NCBI GenBank assembly: GCA_002499085.1
Contig: DAKD01000032.1
Span: 1,315 to 65,314 of the forward strand
Length of the DNA stretch: 64,000 bases
Source: Methanomassiliicoccales archaeon UBA280
GTDB taxonomy: Archaea > Thermoplasmatota > Thermoplasmata > SG8-5
Direction: 5' to 3'
This document shows positions 36-61,483 of the stretch, piece by piece. The position numbers and the translations under genes are program-made. Numbering within the stretch: the first letter of the stretch is position 1; each line of letters begins with the position of its first letter. Below the pieces are notes generated by a model, which had not been told where the DNA came from, did not search any database, and saw only the letters and a program-made list of their open reading frames with translations.

Positions 36-188
36 CCAGCCAGTCTAAGCTATAGGCCCATGTTTGCGAATGATTTCTTGCCTATAGCTCGCTTGGCTGG
101 AGCTTGCTCCGAGACGGCGAAGCCGTCGAGGGACAGCCGAGCCCCGAAGGGGTTCGGCTAGGACCAGCCAGTCTAAGCTATAGGCCCA
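36..188. repeat. Local repeat cluster: 25-nt unit CCAGCCAGTCTAAGCTATAGGCCCA at 36-60 and 164-188, plus an imperfect inverted copy at 81-103 (long hairpin 33-56/81-103)
   Basis: Read directly. Arms of 10+9 complementary bp surround a 24-nt loop. Followed by small hairpins GACGGC-GAA-GCCGTC and GCCGAGCCCC-GAAG-GGGTTCGGC (113-158). Confidence 0.7.
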
Positions 189-474: not shown

Positions 475-750
475 AAAAAAAGAGGGTGGTGTTATATGGC
501 ATAATTGCCTAGGTTGGACGAGAAAGATTTCCCTGGCATATTAATCCACAATCTTTCGAGCAAGCCGAATTTTCGAATGTAAATATATAAGGACTAAGAA
601 AACTCGGCGATGTCCCCAAACTAGCGGCTTTCTTCGATGTAAAGACGGAGTCTGTTTGGGGAGTTTAACAGCAACAACAGAACCACCCTCGCCTGGAAGC
701 AAATGATAAAAAAGAGGGTGGTGTTATTTGGCATAATTGCCTAGGTTGGA
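475..750. repeat. Direct repeat of a 43-bp unit AAAAAAGAGGGTGGTGTTAT(A/T)TGGCATAATTGCCTAGGTTGGA at 475-517 and 708-750
   Basis: Two copies with one mismatch, 233 bp apart, in a non-coding stretch. Each contains the small hairpin GGCA-TAAT-TGCC. Confidence 0.8.
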
Positions 751-1789: not shown

Positions 1790-4141
1790 ATGATTGTGCC
1801 GGATTCCCTGGAAGAGAGGCATTACCAGGTCGCCATAGCCGAGACCGCGTCCGGCATGTCCACGCTGGTTGTCCTGCCCACAGGGCTCGGGAAGACCATC
1901 ATCGCGGCGCTGGTCGTGGCCGAGACGCTGAGGACGAAGAAGGGCAAGATCCTGTTCCTCGCGCCCACCAAGCCGCTTGTGGAGCAGCATGCCAGGTTCC
2001 TCAGGAAGCATCTCATTGCCGAACCGCCTGCGGTCTTCACGGGGGAAACTGCCCCTGCGAAGCGCAGGCAGATGTGGGAGTCCAGCCAGATCGTTGCGGC
2101 CACCCCGCAGGTGATTTCCAATGACATTGTTTCCGGCCAGATTGACCTGAACGACGTGTCCCTCGTTGTGTTCGACGAGGCGCACAGGGCCGTGGGCGAT
2201 TACGCCTACGTATTCATCGGCGAGAGGTTCAGCAAGGTGAAAGGCGGCCTGGCCATGGGCATGACCGCGTCCCCAGGCAACGACCCGAACCACATTTTGG
2301 AAGTCTGCGGCAACCTGCGCATCCAGGCTGTGGAAATAAGGCATGAGTTCGACCCTGACGTCGTCAGATATGTCCATGACATCTACATCAAGTGGGTTGA
2401 GATTGACGTTCCGCCTGAGATGATGGCTGTGATCCAGCACCTGAAGAAGGCCCTGGACGAACAGGTGGTGAAGCTCAGGAAGGCCGGGTACCTGAAAAGG
2501 ACCGGGTTCGTCAGCATGAAGGACCTTCTCGCTGCCCAGCGCCAGGTCAGCGGGCAACTGCAGGCCTCAGGCAACCAGCCGTCGGCATTCCAGGCCGCGA
2601 CCTCGGTCGCGATTGCGATGAAGATAAACCATGCGCTGGAGCTTGCCGAGACCCAGGGAGTCGCGGCCCTGAAGGCCTATTTCGAGAGGCTGATCAAGGA
2701 TGCGGTGTCGAGGGGAGCCAGCCGGGCCTCGAAGGAGGCTATAGCCCTTCCCAAGGTCCAGCTTGCCATGAAGGCCGTTAACCTGCTTGAAGCCATATCT
2801 GTGGAATCGCCGAAGCTTGCCAGGGTGAAGAAGCTGGTGGTCGCGCAGCTGAACCAGAAGCCGGATGCCAGGATAATCGTGTTCACGCATTACAGGGACA
2901 CTGCGGAGCTTGTCTCGGGCGAACTGGCCAAGATAAGCATAGTCAAGCCTGCGAGATTCGTCGGCCAGGCGACCAAGGGCGCGGACAAGGGCATGAACCA
3001 GAAGAAGCAAGTGGATATCATCGACAGGTTCCAGGCAGGCGAGTTCAATGTGCTGGTGGCGACGAGCGTGGCCGAGGAGGGGCTTGACATCCCATCCACC
3101 GACCTTGTGATATTCTACGAGCCTGTTCCCTCGGAGATAAGGAGCATCCAGCGCCGGGGCAGGACAGGCAGGCACAGGACCGGGAAAGTATTCATCCTGG
3201 TTTCCAAGGGCACACGGGATGTGGCTTACCGATGGTCCGCGCATCACAAGGAACACAAGATGCACAGTGAGCTGGAGAAACTGAGAAAGGAGCTCCAGAA
3301 TGACCTGAAGGTGGGCGGCCCCACAGCCCCGAGCTTCGAGAGCGCGGCCGCCAGGATACTGGGGGCGGGACATCCCGCCGAACCGGAGGCCCAGGACAGG
3401 AGCCAGCGCACACTCGGGGAGTTTGCGCCCGGACCGAAGAAAGAGGATAGGCTGAAAATCATCGCAGACACCAGGGAGTTCAAGTCATCGGTAGTGAGGC
3501 ATCTCGCTGTCAGGGACATCATAGTGGAATCCAGGCAGCTGGACATAGGCGACTACCTTGTCTCGGAGCGCGTCGGCGTGGAGAGGAAGGAGGCTGTCGA
3601 TTTTGTGGCTTCTGTCATGGACGGGCGTCTGTTCCAGCAGGTCAAGGCCCTGAAGCGGGCTTACCAGTCGCCGCTGATCATCATCGAGGGGGACATCAGG
3701 TCCGGAAGGCTCTCGGCCGAATCAGTCCGCGGAACCCTGGCTTCGATCGCCGTGGACTTCGGGGTGCCGATAATGTTCACGGCCGACGATTCCGAGACTG
3801 CGGAGTTCCTCATAACGCTCGTCAAGAGGGAGGCACAGGAGGGCCGCACCCCGGGAATCAGGGGCGAGAAGGGCACGATGCTGGTCCAGGAAAGGCAGCA
3901 GTTCATACTAGAGGGGCTGCCCAATGTCTCGGGCGTGCTGGCCCAGAGGCTCCTGTCCCATTTCGGCAGCGTTCGCGCCGTCATGGAGGCCTCGGTGGAG
4001 CAGCTCCAGGAGGTCAAGGGCGTGGGCAAGGGCATAGCCAAGGGCATCAGGGAGACCATTGATGCGAAGTATTACTCCAAGGAGTCGGAGGAGAGTCCGA
4101 AGGAAAGAAAAGCAGCATCTCCGAATGAGATGGGGAGATAA
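1790..4141 (+). CDS. hef: Hef helicase/nuclease (FANCM/XPF-family: DEAH helicase + ERCC4 nuclease + HhH2)
   Basis: PTGLGKT Walker A, FDEAH, VATSVAEEGLDIP and QRRGRTGR helicase motifs. ERCC4 motif GDYLVSERVGVERK. C-terminal HhH repeats (LPNVSGVLAQRLL, VKGVGKGIAKGI). Start moved to the Met at 1790. Confidence 0.93.
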   Translation: MIVPDSLEERHYQVAIAETASGMSTLVVLPTGLGKTIIAALVVAETLRTKKGKILFLAPTKPLVEQHARFLRKHLIAEPPAVFTGETAPAKRRQMWESSQIVAATPQVISNDIVSGQIDLNDVSLVVFDEAHRAVGDYAYVFIGERFSKVKGGLAMGMTASPGNDPNHILEVCGNLRIQAVEIRHEFDPDVVRYVHDIYIKWVEIDVPPEMMAVIQHLKKALDEQVVKLRKAGYLKRTGFVSMKDLLAAQRQVSGQLQASGNQPSAFQAATSVAIAMKINHALELAETQGVAALKAYFERLIKDAVSRGASRASKEAIALPKVQLAMKAVNLLEAISVESPKLARVKKLVVAQLNQKPDARIIVFTHYRDTAELVSGELAKISIVKPARFVGQATKGADKGMNQKKQVDIIDRFQAGEFNVLVATSVAEEGLDIPSTDLVIFYEPVPSEIRSIQRRGRTGRHRTGKVFILVSKGTRDVAYRWSAHHKEHKMHSELEKLRKELQNDLKVGGPTAPSFESAAARILGAGHPAEPEAQDRSQRTLGEFAPGPKKEDRLKIIADTREFKSSVVRHLAVRDIIVESRQLDIGDYLVSERVGVERKEAVDFVASVMDGRLFQQVKALKRAYQSPLIIIEGDIRSGRLSAESVRGTLASIAVDFGVPIMFTADDSETAEFLITLVKREAQEGRTPGIRGEKGTMLVQERQQFILEGLPNVSGVLAQRLLSHFGSVRAVMEASVEQLQEVKGVGKGIAKGIRETIDAKYYSKESEESPKERKAASPNEMGR

Positions 4142-4144
4142 AAA

Positions 4145-5179
4145 ATGTTGGCACTGAGCGTGCCCAGCAGGAATGCAGAGGCTGTGCGCCTGCTCATGAC
4201 AGAGCACGGCATGCTTGACAAGCATCACAGGATATTCAGTTCCGGAGGCATCACAGAGATTCCGGCGCTGGCCATGCCCCTTCCCCCGCTGATGGACGAA
4301 CTGGGGAAGCTCGGCGCGGGCATCATCGACTCGCGGGATTACGAGTGGCGCGAGACATTCAAGGACCCATTCAGGGACATACTGGCAGACATCGGGATCC
4401 CCGAAGCCCTGAAGAAGAAACTTCCGAAGAGATGGGAGCAGCTGGGCCGTGTCCTTGTGCTGAAGCTCCCCAAGGAGCTGGAGCCCAGGAAAGGGGAAGT
4501 GGCGAGGGCCTATGCCAAGGTCCTGGAGGCAGACACAGTCCTGCGGGACACCGGAGGCATCAGGGGAAAGTACAGGGAGCCGGTCATGGAGCTGCTCCTG
4601 GGCAGGAACACGGAAACCATCCACGTGGAGAACCAAGTGAGATTCTCGCTTGACGCTGCCAGGCTCATGTTCTCATCCGGGAATGTGGACGAGCGCATAA
4701 GGATGGCCTCTGTGCCGAAGCCCGGGGAGATTGTCGTCGACATGTTCGCCGGAATCGGTTACTTCTCGGTCCCGATGGCGGTGCATTCCAAGCCAGCGAG
4801 GATAATTTCACATGAATTGAATCCGCTGGCTTTCGAATACCTGAAGAAGAACATCGCCCTGAACAATGTGGGGGATAGGATAACACCTGTCCTTGGGAAT
4901 TGCCTGGACGCCGAGGAAAATATCGCGGACCGGGTGGTGATGGGATATGTCCACACGACACACGAGTACCTGCCCAAGGCCATGAGAATTCTCCGGGGAA
5001 AGGGAATCATCCATTACCATGAGACATGCCCGAACAGGCTCCTCCCCAAAAGGCCGCGGGAGAGGGTGAGGGAGGCAGCGAGGGATGCGGGGAAGGAAGC
5101 CGAGATACTGGGGATGGTGAGGGTGAAGTCTTATGCGCCGGGAGTGGAGCATGTGGTGGTGGACGCAGAGATTTATTAA
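4145..5179 (+). CDS. Trm5/Tyw2 (Met-10+) family tRNA methyltransferase
   Basis: AdoMet-binding block VVDMFAGIGYFSVP followed by HELNP. Size and layout are typical of archaeal Trm5/Taw2. Confidence 0.8.
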   Translation: MLALSVPSRNAEAVRLLMTEHGMLDKHHRIFSSGGITEIPALAMPLPPLMDELGKLGAGIIDSRDYEWRETFKDPFRDILADIGIPEALKKKLPKRWEQLGRVLVLKLPKELEPRKGEVARAYAKVLEADTVLRDTGGIRGKYREPVMELLLGRNTETIHVENQVRFSLDAARLMFSSGNVDERIRMASVPKPGEIVVDMFAGIGYFSVPMAVHSKPARIISHELNPLAFEYLKKNIALNNVGDRITPVLGNCLDAEENIADRVVMGYVHTTHEYLPKAMRILRGKGIIHYHETCPNRLLPKRPRERVREAARDAGKEAEILGMVRVKSYAPGVEHVVVDAEIY

Positions 5180-6621: not shown

Positions 6622-7269
6622 CTAGGCCTTTGAAGCCATCATCACAATCGACTCCCTCGGATATATCTGGCCTTCATGTCTCACTTTCCTCTCGATAATC
6701 TGGAAATGCCTGACAGAAAGTCCGGCGCCCTTGACCAACGAGTCAAGTTCCTGCCCGAGATAGAACCTCCAGACAAGGCCTTCTTCCCTGAGATAGGTGC
6801 GCGGGAATATCTCGGAGCCCTTGCCCGACCGCATGTCCGCCGGGGAAAAGACCTCGATGAGGACCATGCCCCTGGGCGCAAGAACCCTGGCCGTCTCCTT
6901 CAGAATGGCTTGGTCGTCGCCCGGGATAGCATGTGTGAGCACGTGCCTGGAGACGACAGCCGAGAACGAGTTGTCCCTGAAGGGAAGGTTCCTGGCATCG
7001 CCGACCACCCGATTGAACTTCGGATCCTTCATGAGGAAAGTCCGGAATGATTCGCGGGAGATGTCCAGGCAGACAAGGTTCCTGCAGTGCCGTTCGATTT
7101 CCGAGGCAGTGTTTCCGTCCCCCGAACCGAGTTCCAGGACATTTCCTGCGAGGTCAAGGAATTCGGAGTAGGCTGATAGATCAAATCCTCCGCGCCACTG
7201 AGTTCCTTTTCGGGCATAGGATGTATCCCAGGCCAGAGGATAGGTCTTTCGGTCGAGTTCAGCGTTCAT
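6622..7269 (-). CDS. Class I SAM-dependent methyltransferase
   Basis: Motif I VLELGSGDGN and post-I LDIS. Typical length. Confidence 0.85.
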   Translation of the reverse strand: MNAELDRKTYPLAWDTSYARKGTQWRGGFDLSAYSEFLDLAGNVLELGSGDGNTASEIERHCRNLVCLDISRESFRTFLMKDPKFNRVVGDARNLPFRDNSFSAVVSRHVLTHAIPGDDQAILKETARVLAPRGMVLIEVFSPADMRSGKGSEIFPRTYLREEGLVWRFYLGQELDSLVKGAGLSVRHFQIIERKVRHEGQIYPRESIVMMASKA

Positions 7270-7336
7270 CGTTCACCGCCGTTCCCGGTTCCGAAGTATG
7301 TCCAAATGTCCCGAAGGGACTTTGGATGCAGGAAAA

Positions 7337-7399
7337 ACCGCGCCACTGGGTGCCCTTCCTGGCGTAGGACTCGTTCCAGGCCAAGGGATACCGTTTCAT
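7337..7399 (-). pseudogene. Duplicated, diverged 5' end of the methyltransferase gene 6622-7269
   Basis: The minus-strand translation MKRYPLAWNESYARKGTQWRG matches codons ~8-28 of the intact gene (RKTYPLAWDTSYARKGTQWRGG). Most nucleotide differences are synonymous. The frame then runs into a repeat hairpin and stops at the real ATG. Confidence 0.7.
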
Positions 7400-7757
7400 G
7401 TCCAACTTTTCCGGGGAACCGCCCATGCACCCAATAAGCTGCTCATACGATATATCAGTTCCTCCGGGAACAACCGACCTTCAACATCTCATCGAACTCA
7501 TGAGAAACGAAAAAAGATAGAGAGAGTCGTTCCCATGCCAGAGCCTTCAAATTCGTACCCCGGCCTCACGGCCGAGGCTTTTTGTGTTGAGCTGCCCTCA
7601 TGAACGCTTTGCGAAGGGGCACTAGCTCACAAAATGATGTGAAACCCTGGCCTTACAGCCAGGGCATGCCGCTCAAAGTCGACGAACATGGCGCCAGGTA
7701 AGGCGGGGCAGGGTTGCCCCTTCACATTATATCTGAATCAGAAGTTTGGATACTGGA

Positions 7758-7964
7758 TTAATCCAACCAAGCCCCGTCTTCCTTGTATTCCTGGTACAGG
7801 CGCACGCCAGTGAGGCAGAGCAGGAGGACGAACAGTATCAGCAGGAGTACAGGCCCTGCGGACCAGTCGCCCCTGAGAACAAGCAGTACTATTGAAACAG
7901 TCCAGAGGGCTGCGGCGGACACGCTGGCGATGCGCCCCTTCGGGTTCAGGAGTATGACTGTCAT
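7758..7964 (-). CDS. Small membrane protein (68 aa, two hydrophobic helices)
   Basis: ATGA start/stop overlap with the upstream methyltransferase (7961-7964). Hydrophobic segments AAALWTVSIVLLVL and GPVLLLILFVLLLCL. Confidence 0.6.
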   Translation of the reverse strand: MTVILLNPKGRIASVSAAALWTVSIVLLVLRGDWSAGPVLLLILFVLLLCLTGVRLYQEYKEDGAWLD

Positions 7965-12713: not shown

Positions 12714-13048
12714 TGTATATGTGACAGGGCATTCTCAAGCATTTTGTTGCTCTGTATTTGGGGGCCTCGCCTGTAAGGGCGAGGGGGTCGGGTACTCACC
12801 TGACAGGCCTGAGTCAGGTGATATTTGAAGCTCTAACAAGACTTCGTCTCCCTCATCCTTCGAATTGCGCATTATAAACGAAGTTTGAAAAATCGTCCCC
12901 ATGCCAGAGCTGAGAAAATTCCTCCCCGGCCTTACAGATGAGGTTTCCTGTTAAAAACGCCCGAAAATGCACTCAACAAGCGCACTCAAAATGGGGTAAA
13001 TTTGAAACCCCGCCCTCCGTTCCAAATGTCCCGCAGGACTTTGGATGC
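12714..13048. repeat. Modular hairpin-rich dispersed intergenic repeat, copy X (related copies at 29592-30153, 7275-7670, 61657-61740)
   Basis: Shared blocks: TGTAT..GTGACAG.GCATT..TTTGTTGCTCT; GGGGCCTCGCCTGTA; GGGTC.GGTACTC + hairpin; TTCGTCTC.CTCATCCTTCG; AGTTTGAAA..TG.CAGAGC; CCGCCCTCCGTTCCAAATGTCCCGCAGGACTTTGGATGC. Confidence 0.8.
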
Positions 13049-29591: not shown

Positions 29592-30153
29592 TGTATGGGT
29601 GACAGAGCATTTTAGGGCAGTTTGTTGCTCTATTCTCGGGGGCCTCGCCTGTACGAGCATCGTAGCTCCTAGGCAAATCCCAACATCGATGCGAGTGAGA
29701 CGAATGGCCCATGCGCTTGTAAACGCCATTCGTTGCAAGGGCGGATGGGTCAGGTACTCGCCCAGCCTGTGCGAGCTGGGTGAAATTACGGGCTCCTGCA
29801 GGGATTCGTCTCTCTCATCCTTCGCATTGTACATAAAAGTAAAGTTTGAAAGAAACGCATCTGTGCCAGAGCTTGGTTTATGCGCGACCGCCCTCCGTTC
29901 CAAATGTCCCGCAGGACTTTGGATGCTGCCTAAAACAGGCGGGGCATGCTGCTTGACTTTTTTCGAACCATTGGATATACGAAACTCTTGAAAGTTTGAA
30001 AGAGACGATTCTGTGCAAGAGTTGATAAATGTATACCCCGCCCTGACAGGCGGGGCTTCCTGGGCAGAAAATACATTTGCGCAGAGATGCCGCTCAAGCG
30101 CACCCGATGAGAAAATGCATTTAAACCCCACCCTGGCAGGTGGGGCATGCTGC
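29592..30153. repeat. Modular hairpin-rich dispersed intergenic repeat, copy Y (full unit 29592-29926 plus a second partial module to 30153)
   Basis: Collinear with 12714-13048 apart from two indels of ~85-100 bp. Downstream module AGTTTGAAAGAGACG...CCCCGCCCTGACAGGCGGGG...AAACCCCACCCTGGCAGGTGGGGCATGC parallels 12880-13015 and 7515-7670. Confidence 0.8.
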
Positions 30154-60116: not shown

Positions 60117-61209
60117 CCCGAGGAACCACAGGGCCGTGGAGGAGCTGTACAAGATAGCGGACGAGATATACAACCAGATCGACAGGGGCCAGATACCCAG
60201 GATGAGCATACCCCTCAGGTCCAAGAAGAACATACAGTTCGCACCGCGGAAAGGTGTCTGGAAGTACGGAAACCTGCACGGGGTGAGAAGCGCCAAGAAG
60301 ATGACGGGCGCCTACATGCTCCTCAGGACGATGTACATGCTGGAGTTCATCAAGGACATGATAAAGGACCAGAAATCGTCCACGCTCAGGGAGATGTACT
60401 ACATCTCGGAGGGCTGGGGCCATGCCAAGTTCGGCTCCCAGGACGAGAGCAACAACCTGGCAGAGGACCTGGAGATTGTGACCACATGCATGAGGGAGGA
60501 CTTCAAGCTGCGGCCCGAGGAGGACGGGGCCAGGGTGATTGGCAACCTCACGCTGATGGAGACCAACCGAAAGGGAGAGAAGAAGAAGATCAACCTCAGG
60601 GACGACGTCGGGGATTCGGGCTACGGCATTCCCTTCAACGTCGAGAAGGACAAGATCAACCTGCTGGAAACCGACGCCAAGTTCGTTATCGCCATAGAAA
60701 CGGGCGGTATGTTCGACAGGCTGGTGGAGAACGGTTTCGACGAGGATTTCAACGCGATCATCCTGCATCTGAAAGGCCAGCCCGCCCGCTCGACCAGGCG
60801 GTTCATGAAGCGCCTCAACGAGGAGCTGAACCTCCCGATAGTGGTATTCACCGACGGAGACCCATGGTCCTTCAGGATATTCTCCTCCATCGCTTACGGC
60901 GCCATCAAGACCGCCCACATCTCGGAATACCTTGCCACGCCCACGGCCATGTTCGTGGGCATAACCAGCTCGGACATAATGAATTACGAGCTCCCCACCG
61001 ACAAGCTGAACGACAAGGACATAAAGGCTCTGCAGTCCGAGCTAACTGACCCAAGGTTCAAGGACCGGTTCTGGAAGGACGAGATAGAGCTCATGCTGAA
61101 GATTGGCAAGAAGGCGGAACAGCAGGCGCTGGCGAAGTACGGTTTGGATTTCGTGACCGATAAATATTTGCCCGAGAAGCTTACGGAATTGGGCATCCTC
61201 AAGCAATAG
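60106..61209 (+). CDS. top6A: DNA topoisomerase VI subunit A (Spo11 family)
   Basis: STLREMYY (catalytic Tyr region) and Toprim IAIETGGMF...FTDGDPWS. 11-nt overlap with top6B. Confidence 0.95.
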
Positions 61210-61387
61210 CCTGCATGGTCTTATGCAGGCAGGATGTACCGAGCGAGCATGCGAGGGCGAGTTTTCTCCGAAGATGGCGAAGCCGTCGAGGCCCCGCCGA
61301 CATCCGAAGGATTCGGTGAGGGTTTTGCTGAATATTTTTCTTTTGGAGCCCGAGCCGGCGCAGCGAGGTTAAAAGAAAAATACTCAG

Positions 61388-61483
61388 GCCGAGCAGCAGG
61401 CATTGGCGAAATACGGTCTCGACTTCGTTACGGACAAATACCTGCCTGAGAAGCTCACAGAATTGGGCATTCTGAAAGCATGA
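61388..61483 (+). pseudogene. Second, synonymously diverged copy of the last 31 codons of top6A
   Basis: Translates as [31 protein letters not shown], against [31 protein letters not shown] in the intact gene. About 17 nucleotide differences, nearly all at third positions. Confidence 0.8.

Follow-up and report, generated by a model that had tools for sequence, protein, structure and literature searches.

A probable hairpin-module insertion displacing the native start of a methyltransferase gene in an uncultured Thermoplasmata archaeon

Integrative elements which replace the end of a gene are exemplified by phage 21 and e14 at the 3′ end of icd and by SXT/R391 at the 5′ end of prfC. Such elements are kilobase-sized, encode a tyrosine integrase and use defined att sites. 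Elements derived from IS200/IS605, to our knowledge, insert without target duplication and carry no host gene ends. Long and variable direct repeats (8–514 bp) have been reported for IS1634/IS1549 (PMC2266710). In homology-facilitated illegitimate recombination, a linear foreign fragment is joined by a homologous crossover at one end and by a non-homologous join at the other; this process is known from transformable bacteria and from conjugation in E. coli, and its illegitimate joints are essentially arbitrary (PMC3240628). No description of hairpin repeats displacing or duplicating gene ends was found in literature searches.

The locus compared with these systems here belongs to an uncultured Thermoplasmata MAG (G000; 1.75 Mb, 77% complete), and the whole stretch of DNA analysed, hereafter the window, is a 64-kb portion of its contig C24. 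Upstream of the working start of a methyltransferase gene (copy B) lies a second, silently diverged version of the same gene start (copy A, or the stub), with a hairpin module between the two. The features of the locus, in window coordinates, are as follows.

6622–7269, minus strand: gene for a class I SAM-dependent methyltransferase of 215 aa (Pfam Methyltransf_11/25/23)
7269 to 6880–6955, minus strand: foreign-looking part of the methyltransferase gene, codons 1 to ~105–130 (sliding window, trees and maximum chi-square)
7190–7269, minus strand: copy B, the working 5′ end, MNAELDRKTYPLAWDTSYARKGTQWRG, closing in the core CAGTGGCGCGG (7200–7190)
7270–7296, minus strand: 27-nt leader of the working gene with a Shine-Dalgarno-like GGTGA at 7277–7273 (read from the sequence)
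7297–7337, minus strand: hairpin module, made up of a T-run (7337–7333), a short linker and a stem-loop (7326–7301), directly adjoining the end of copy A
7338–7426, minus strand: copy A, the displaced native 5′ end with start codon and 29.7 codons, MGGSPEKLDMKRYPLAWNESYARKGTQWRG (sequence, blast and relatives)
7259–7426, minus strand: 55-aa upstream ORF, which is copy A read on through the module (ORF table)
7450–7455, minus strand: TATA-like box ATATAT, putative promoter of the displaced native start (sequence and the layout in G005)
7513–7680, no strand assigned: further dispersed hairpin modules upstream of the native promoter (BLAST of 7427–7760 against the genome)

The first-pass annotation of this DNA had reported a second, mirrored methyltransferase 5′ end at 7399–7337, upstream of ATG 7269, and it is indeed present: the minus-strand ATG AAA CGG TAT CCC TTG ... 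CAG TGG CGC GGT (7399–7337) encodes MKRYPLAWNESYARKGTQWRG, the counterpart of RKTYPLAWDTSYARKGTQWRG in the 215-aa methyltransferase. The upstream copy is, however, longer than had been claimed, since it runs from ATG 7426 and includes the original start codon and promoter. It begins with this ATG (MGGSPEKLDMKRYPLAW...) and closes in an 11-nt core, CAGTGGCGCGG (7348–7338), which is found at the gene-internal edge of both copies. The copies are offset by 148 nt and are 75% identical over 53 nt, and the non-coding DNA separating them amounts to only 67 nt. Within it, the hairpin TCCAAATGTCCCGAAGGGACTTTGGA (7301–7326) has a 10-bp stem, one bulged base and a TTCG loop; the annotation had already placed a hairpin module between the copies, with two further occurrences elsewhere in the window, and was right to do so, as family members lie at window positions 13021–13045 and 29899–29923. 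The 27-nt leader that follows (7270–7296) contains no TATA box and is unalignable with the leaders of relatives. The 55-aa ORF is read in a different frame from the gene and terminates at a TGA (7261–7259) lying 8 nt beyond the working ATG 7269, an arrangement in which termination of the upstream ORF could possibly be coupled to initiation of the enzyme. Farther upstream, the intergenic DNA at 7513–7680 holds at least two extra dispersed hairpin modules, of the GCCTCGGCCGTGAGGCCGGGG and CCCTGGCCTTACAGCCAGGG types, and the BLAST of 7427–7760 returned copies on nine other contigs (C5, C7, C8, C11, C12, C17, C26, C29 and C33).

Similarity of the two copies by chance was excluded by tblastn against the whole 1.75-Mb genome (E = 2e-7; reverse, 8e-10), and a paralogue as the origin of copy A was rejected, as tblastn found none for this N-terminus in the genome. 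Across 25 aligned codons the copies differ at 27 positions, distributed 8/4/15 over the first, second and third codon positions; silent sites are saturated (Sd 16.8 of 16.7), while pN is 0.17. The earlier count of 10 differing codons, 8 of them silent, in the YPLAW..RG block is correct. As an argument in itself, the ratio of silent to replacement changes carries less weight than had been supposed: in simulation, the same counts are also compatible with a duplication in place followed by free decay of the stub and constraint on the working copy. The argument therefore rests on the comparison with relatives.

Among the genomes compared, the closest relative is G003, with 78.6% identity over 5.2 kb of flanking DNA (genome-wide ~79%) and genome-typical silent-site divergence (pS 0.53–0.57) in the neighbouring genes. 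Copy A is 88% identical to the G003 gene start over 94 nt, as against 78.6% genome-wide, and diverges from the G003 gene with pS 0.38–0.41 and pN 0.05–0.07, rates which resemble those of an orthologue under purifying selection. For copy B, pS to G003 reaches 0.88–0.91. At sites where G003 and another member of the genus differ, copy A matches G003 at 11–18 positions and the other member at 1–4 (p 1e-4 to 0.02); at G003-discriminating sites copy B is split 5–11 against 5–9 and displays no G003 affinity, being 65–75% identical to every available orthologue. The stub further retains an intact frame and all genus-consensus residues. Its ATATAT box (7455–7450) has its centre ~27 nt upstream of ATG 7426, which is the distance expected if the archaeal mRNA is leaderless, and the undisturbed gene start in G005 has a matching layout (ATATAT, 23 nt, ATG), so that the box probably served as the promoter of the native start. 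Removal of 7337–7190 (148 nt) fuses copy A in frame to GFDLSAY and yields an intact gene with its own promoter. Because of the G003 affinity, the pS and pN values, the TATA box with a leaderless ATG as in G005, and the in-frame restoration on excision of the 148 nt, copy A is shown to be the native gene start of this archaeon.

The gene downstream of copy B is not uniform along its length. In a sliding window, codons 1–120 are 62–73% identical to genus members, with G003 no closer than the others, and codons 140–200 are 80–82% identical to G003, which is clearly closest there. Partition trees, built on short alignments, place the 5′ part on a long branch (0.37; 27% support) and the 3′ part in a clade with G003 (77%). 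Maximum chi-square analysis puts the breakpoint at codon 117 (p<0.001, with G004 as outgroup) or codon 130 (p=0.014); it is significant with two of six outgroups, while two more follow the same trend without significance and two give nothing. Taken from these alignments, the methyltransferase gene is shown to be a mosaic with its apparent breakpoint around codon 105–130, and the foreign-looking tract thus reaches ~90 codons past the duplicated block. The earlier proposal of divergence under coding constraint, in different lineages and prior to the joining of the copies, gains support from both the comparison with relatives and the mosaic gene. A search for a donor in genomes and metagenomes returned empty sites and the G003-type allele, with no B-type start. 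Fast evolution of the 5′ half of the gene may therefore be an alternative to a foreign origin of copy B, since no B-type donor was found and copy B is about equally distant (65–75% identity) from all orthologues. Our conclusion is that the module, the leader and the first ~105–130 codons probably derive from another, unsampled lineage.

The reading that we favour, and consider moderately probable, is recombinational import of the module together with a foreign gene start, by which copy A would be the stranded native promoter, start codon and first 30 codons. The imported piece would have consisted of the hairpin module, the 27-nt leader and the first ~105–130 codons of the other lineage's gene. 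On the gene side, an ordinary homologous crossover near codon 105–130 would suffice, while on the other side the outer T-run edge of the module would have been joined non-homologously to native codon 30. The locus would thereby have gained 148 nt and a gene start duplicated in tandem, with silent divergence between the two copies. The order of these events and the agent of the non-homologous join are themselves conjectural, and three routes to the join may be envisaged: a Y1 transposase that cleaved the module edge or transferred a strand there; a break at codon 30 repaired by copying a donor fragment that ended at the module; or transfer of a ready-made stub-module-gene allele, with the stub as the left homology arm. 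Since IS200/IS605 transposition, as far as we know it, makes neither target duplications nor one-ended joins, an enzymatic join step would be without precedent. Since a start codon and a ribosome-binding site came in with the imported piece, the gene would have kept its function. Transcription of the enzyme would probably begin at the leaderless promoter of the stub and pass the T5 run, a signal at which transcription in archaea can terminate, and translation would begin at the gene's own GGTGA/ATG behind the 55-aa upstream ORF, possibly in a coupled manner.

Such an import resembles the gene-end replacement by phage 21, e14 and SXT-type elements in that incoming DNA supplies a silently diverged working end, the native end persists beside it as an untranslated stub, and an identical short core, here CAGTGGCGCGG, marks the gene-internal edge of both copies. 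It differs in that the intervening DNA is only 67 nt, encodes no integrase, and is followed by a foreign tract that continues ~90 codons past the block, as in homologous exchange. An integrase-type element was accordingly rejected, there being no tyrosine or serine recombinase gene in the 67 nt between the copies. The inferred geometry is also that of homology-facilitated illegitimate recombination; the joint in the present case, however, lies at the edge of a repeat module, and the same design recurs at many gene ends.

Relatives bear on the age of the event. At the G003 locus, the native promoter is followed by a stub that reaches codon 14, by a related module and by the working gene, and the contig breaks within the duplicated start. 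In Ga0315274, a 633-kb metagenome contig, the module stands directly past the stop codon of the upstream gene and no stub is found, and seven other relatives have empty sites with neither module nor stub. The module at this locus has a common loop variant, CCCTTCGGG, in G000, G003 and Ga0315274; as this variant is present in three lineages and the stub only in some, a module-linked allele has been shared or exchanged among lineages. Repeated imports could have produced this picture, as could a single old event after which the allele at the locus was replaced. Between G003 (L013, G003:C16) and Ga0315274 (L023, Ga0315274_10000004), identity is 96% in the first 40 codons beside the module and ~82–89% deeper in the gene, and this hints that a module-linked gene start was exchanged between these two lineages as well.

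One old insertion rather than recent imports could account for the common variant. It would have occurred in the ancestor of G000, G003 and Ga0315274, after which module-anchored homologous recombination swapped the working 5′ part of the G000 gene, and the stub was refreshed by conversion or by recombination with module-free relatives. This alternative keeps some weight although it is, on balance, unlikely. The same loop variant occupies the same locus in the same orientation in all three lineages, and the 27-nt hairpin is identical between G000 and Ga0315274 despite a genome-wide identity of only ~79%. An allele swap would also fit the concerted evolution that flanking repeats show at a second module locus common to G000 and G003, as well as the high identity of G003 and Ga0315274 beside the module. 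Nevertheless, the stubs differ in length (codon 30 in G000, codon 14 in G003) and Ga0315274 has none, the DNA leading from the module to the ATG (27 nt against ~75 nt) is unalignable between lineages, and a stub idle since before the species split should have suffered frame damage, of which the G000 stub has none.

Apart from the methyltransferase locus, a search of the whole genome, which the first-pass annotation had called for, recovered further genes with a module and a copy of a gene end. Self-comparison of the genome gave ~55 nearby direct-repeat pairs, and modules in common with the methyltransferase locus are present in at least 16 of the segments that lie between the repeats; the number of true gene-end cases can be given only approximately, since loci that are old, conserved and structured are caught by the screen too. 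At the methyltransferase locus and at least five other loci checked, the flanking direct repeats measure 26–133 nt, and no motif is shared at the joints. The principal gene-end cases are listed below.

Window 61112–61202 and 61386–61476: 3′ end of top6A, its last 30 codons present twice (91 nt, 183 nt apart), with an A/T-stem module between
C22:26450–27150: start of hypF three times in a row, MAKITVRGVVQGVGF, MRIIIQGTVQGVGFRR and then the real gene
C36:30496–30986: 3′ region of cysK duplicated (133 nt, 99% identical) around a 225-nt composite module
C16: duplicated end of a metallophosphoesterase-type gene
C13: duplicated end of a gene encoding 979 aa

The differences between the two top6A copies are silent without exception (18/18). 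The working copy is nearer to G007, G004 and G006 (85–89%), whereas the gene body is nearest to G003 (87%) and the displaced copy is slightly nearer to G003; this comparison with relatives is suggestive, not decisive. Each truncated hypF copy abuts an A/T-stem module of ~95 nt, with an H hairpin between them. The working cysK now ends inside the module (…STELYNQNNRAWI) rather than in …STELFGAKTR, and its duplication looks like a young event. On C13, C16 and C22, the element end GATTACCG directly abuts the displaced copy and the working copy is then followed by ~30–40 nt of unique flank, which is the layout that import of a gene end with its flank and element predicts. Parts of tRNA genes, from the 5′ side, are also among the duplicated ends. 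Some pairs in the genome are young, with repeats of 26–133 nt that are 99–100% identical and abut the inserts on both sides, and some of the screened pairs are old, conserved in G003 and evolving in concert. Gene conversion between flanking repeats does occur, and not all of the direct-repeat pairs need share the origin of the methyltransferase locus.

A few further arrangements were recorded during this screen. At window positions 36–61 and 164–189 (C24:1350–1503), a 26-nt tRNA 5′ part on the minus strand is exactly repeated around a 102-nt structured insert, which itself holds an antisense copy of the same 26 nt; the tRNA gene of 36–61 is cut by the start of the window, and G003 shares the arrangement, with compensatory changes in the hairpins of the insert. 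At C17:3265–3467, a 58-nt exact repeat comprises 35 nt upstream of a tRNA gene and its first 23 nt (anticodon CTT region), and the repeats are separated by an 87-nt insert containing a piece of the next segment of the tRNA. Finally, a 48-nt direct repeat at window positions 476–523 and 708–754 (C24:1790–2068) surrounds a non-coding segment of ~180 nt that is ~95% identical to G003, far above the genome average of 79%, and the repeats have evolved in concert within each species; the segment may be an unannotated structured RNA gene.

These other loci are also where a duplication in place finds its best evidence. In this account, the module transposed into the gene start with a target duplication of ~80–90 nt, and the copies diverged later, the working one only silently. 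Its chance of being right is slight. It draws on the young, near-identical repeats that abut inserts on both sides, on the simulated substitution counts, and on the documented existence of long, variable target duplications (8–514 bp) for IS1634/IS1549 (PMC2266710), insertions which, like those at the present loci, have direct repeats of variable length, from tens of bp to over 100 bp, on either side. It nonetheless predicts a decayed stub, and the stub is intact and, at silent as well as at replacement sites, resembles the relatives more than the working copy does. The foreign-looking tract beyond the duplicated block and the silent-only differences in top6A argue in the same direction, and the modules are without DDE-type terminal inverted repeats. 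The repeats of IS1634/IS1549 start out identical and are made by a DDE transposase that acts on elements with inverted ends, whereas in this genome the old repeats show silent differences, the inserts are hairpin modules and it is the stub that is native. Duplication of the IS1634/IS1549 type thus explains the young identical repeats but neither the native, undecayed stub nor the mosaic gene.

The hairpin family comprises 31 loci in the 1.75-Mb genome, with a 10-bp stem and a conserved 1-nt bulge, and several sub-families carry an added variable outer stem. Over the 31 hairpins, 99.6% of cells are paired and three pairs have compensatory changes (A-U to G-C, G-C to C-G and U-A to C-G), a covariation score reached by none of 500 shuffles. 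Module families are found in every member of the genus. The median distance from hairpins to ORF ends is 106 nt, against 73 nt for random intergenic positions; as these distances are similar, mere nearness of the hairpins to gene ends is uninformative. A scan found no tRNA or tmRNA, and a search of Rfam gave no match to the window at the gathering threshold; for 7150–7780, a cut-off of E<=10 produced nothing but noise.

The genome encodes a Y1 transposase (Y1_Tnp; PF01797 match at C21:3196–3546, E 8.6e-28) with the HUH motif HVH. Its gene (C21:3130–3576) is single-copy in seven of eight genomes of the genus and adjoins the same upstream neighbour gene in G004 and G007. In G000 it has an H-type hairpin ~70–90 nt upstream and a composite dispersed element downstream, the latter being found also between duplicated gene ends at other loci. 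In the same region (C21:3130–4190), the 3′ two-thirds of the Y1 gene are duplicated downstream (3339–3724 and 3798–4190, 70% identical), and the gene adjoins a toxin-antitoxin-like pair (zinc-ribbon/AbrB-type ORF 2700–3032, C21). The flanks of the Y1 gene and the hairpins together present the pattern of IS200/IS605 derivatives or REP-RAYT systems, which makes the Y1 protein the obvious candidate to act on the module edges.

The likeness to non-autonomous derivatives of IS200/IS605 (PATE) and to REP-RAYT extends to dispersed imperfect hairpins with a conserved unpaired base and compensatory stems; to tens of copies per genome, mostly intergenic and lacking terminal inverted repeats; and to a single conserved Y1 (HUH) transposase gene with these repeats on its flanks. 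Kinship of the modules to IS200/IS605-type repeats is therefore likely, judging from these shared traits. The differences lie in the position of the modules, which here stand between displaced and replacement gene ends, and in the insertion sites: in place of insertion at a fixed tetra- or pentanucleotide without duplication, the inserts here are flanked by repeats of 26–133 nt. A classical MITE was rejected as well, since no inverted repeats are found at the insert ends and the duplications vary from 26 to 133 nt instead of being short and of fixed length.

Selection of the whole arrangement as a regulatory leader, in which the stub ORF, the T-run and the hairpin form an attenuator or coupling device and copy A is conserved as an upstream ORF, is improbable. 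The intact upstream ORF with its leaderless ATG and its stop 8 nt past the working ATG would suit such a device, as would the T5 run directly after the stub; such a device has no need, however, of a leader peptide copying the N-terminus of the enzyme. Furthermore, the stub is truncated in G003 and absent from Ga0315274, and the region belongs to no Rfam family and folds no more stably than shuffled sequence (z = -0.08). Several other explanations were rejected. A diversity-generating retroelement does not fit 27 differences that involve all bases in both copies (in copy A: A 8, G 9, C 6, T 4) and are not confined to adenine. An intron, ribosomal bypass or frameshift joining copy A to the gene is contradicted by the differing frames, the direct repeats at the junctions, and the own ATG and GGTGA of copy B. 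An archaeal bulge-helix-bulge consists of two 3-nt bulges separated by a 4-bp helix, whereas the hairpin here has a single 1-nt bulge, its direct-repeat junctions cannot pair, and no Rfam match was obtained.

An assembly or binning artefact that joined alleles of two co-occurring populations, for which the 77% completeness of the MAG and the contig break inside the duplicated start of G003 might speak, is very unlikely indeed. The junctions are found unchanged in four separate assemblies that come from two pipelines; the alleles, being only ~70% identical, share too few long exact words to be bridged in assembly; and the design is seen again at many other loci and in several genomes. The exact methyltransferase protein is in fact encoded on eight contigs of other assemblies, and the four that were read (two JGI metagenomes, 3300001580 and 3300002703, and two Logan SRA assemblies, SRR1313285 and SRR1313287) have no mismatch to the window over 569–700 nt around the junctions.

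We assign the methyltransferase locus as a new 5′-end member of a recurring class, namely small hairpin-module insertions that displace native gene ends. What this case adds is that the promoter has been displaced too, at a 5′ end, that a crossover point can be measured inside the gene, and that the modules are linked to a Y1 gene. As a wider and frankly speculative proposal, which we hold only tentatively, the modules may be mobile cassettes without proteins of their own, travelling between lineages with a spare adjacent gene end. They would rely on homologous recombination on one side and on a domesticated Y1 protein on the other, would enter even essential genes (top6A) without inactivating them, and would leave a stub of the native end and drive mosaic evolution. 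If the import reading is true, IS200/IS605-type hairpin repeats mark, and perhaps cause, the splicing of foreign gene pieces into resident genes, which remain unbroken, and the old gene end persists as a dated fossil of each event. It would also explain mosaic genes and orphan upstream ORFs in uncultured archaea, would furnish an annotation rule for telling real starts from stubs, and would give the single-copy Y1 transposases of archaea a testable role.
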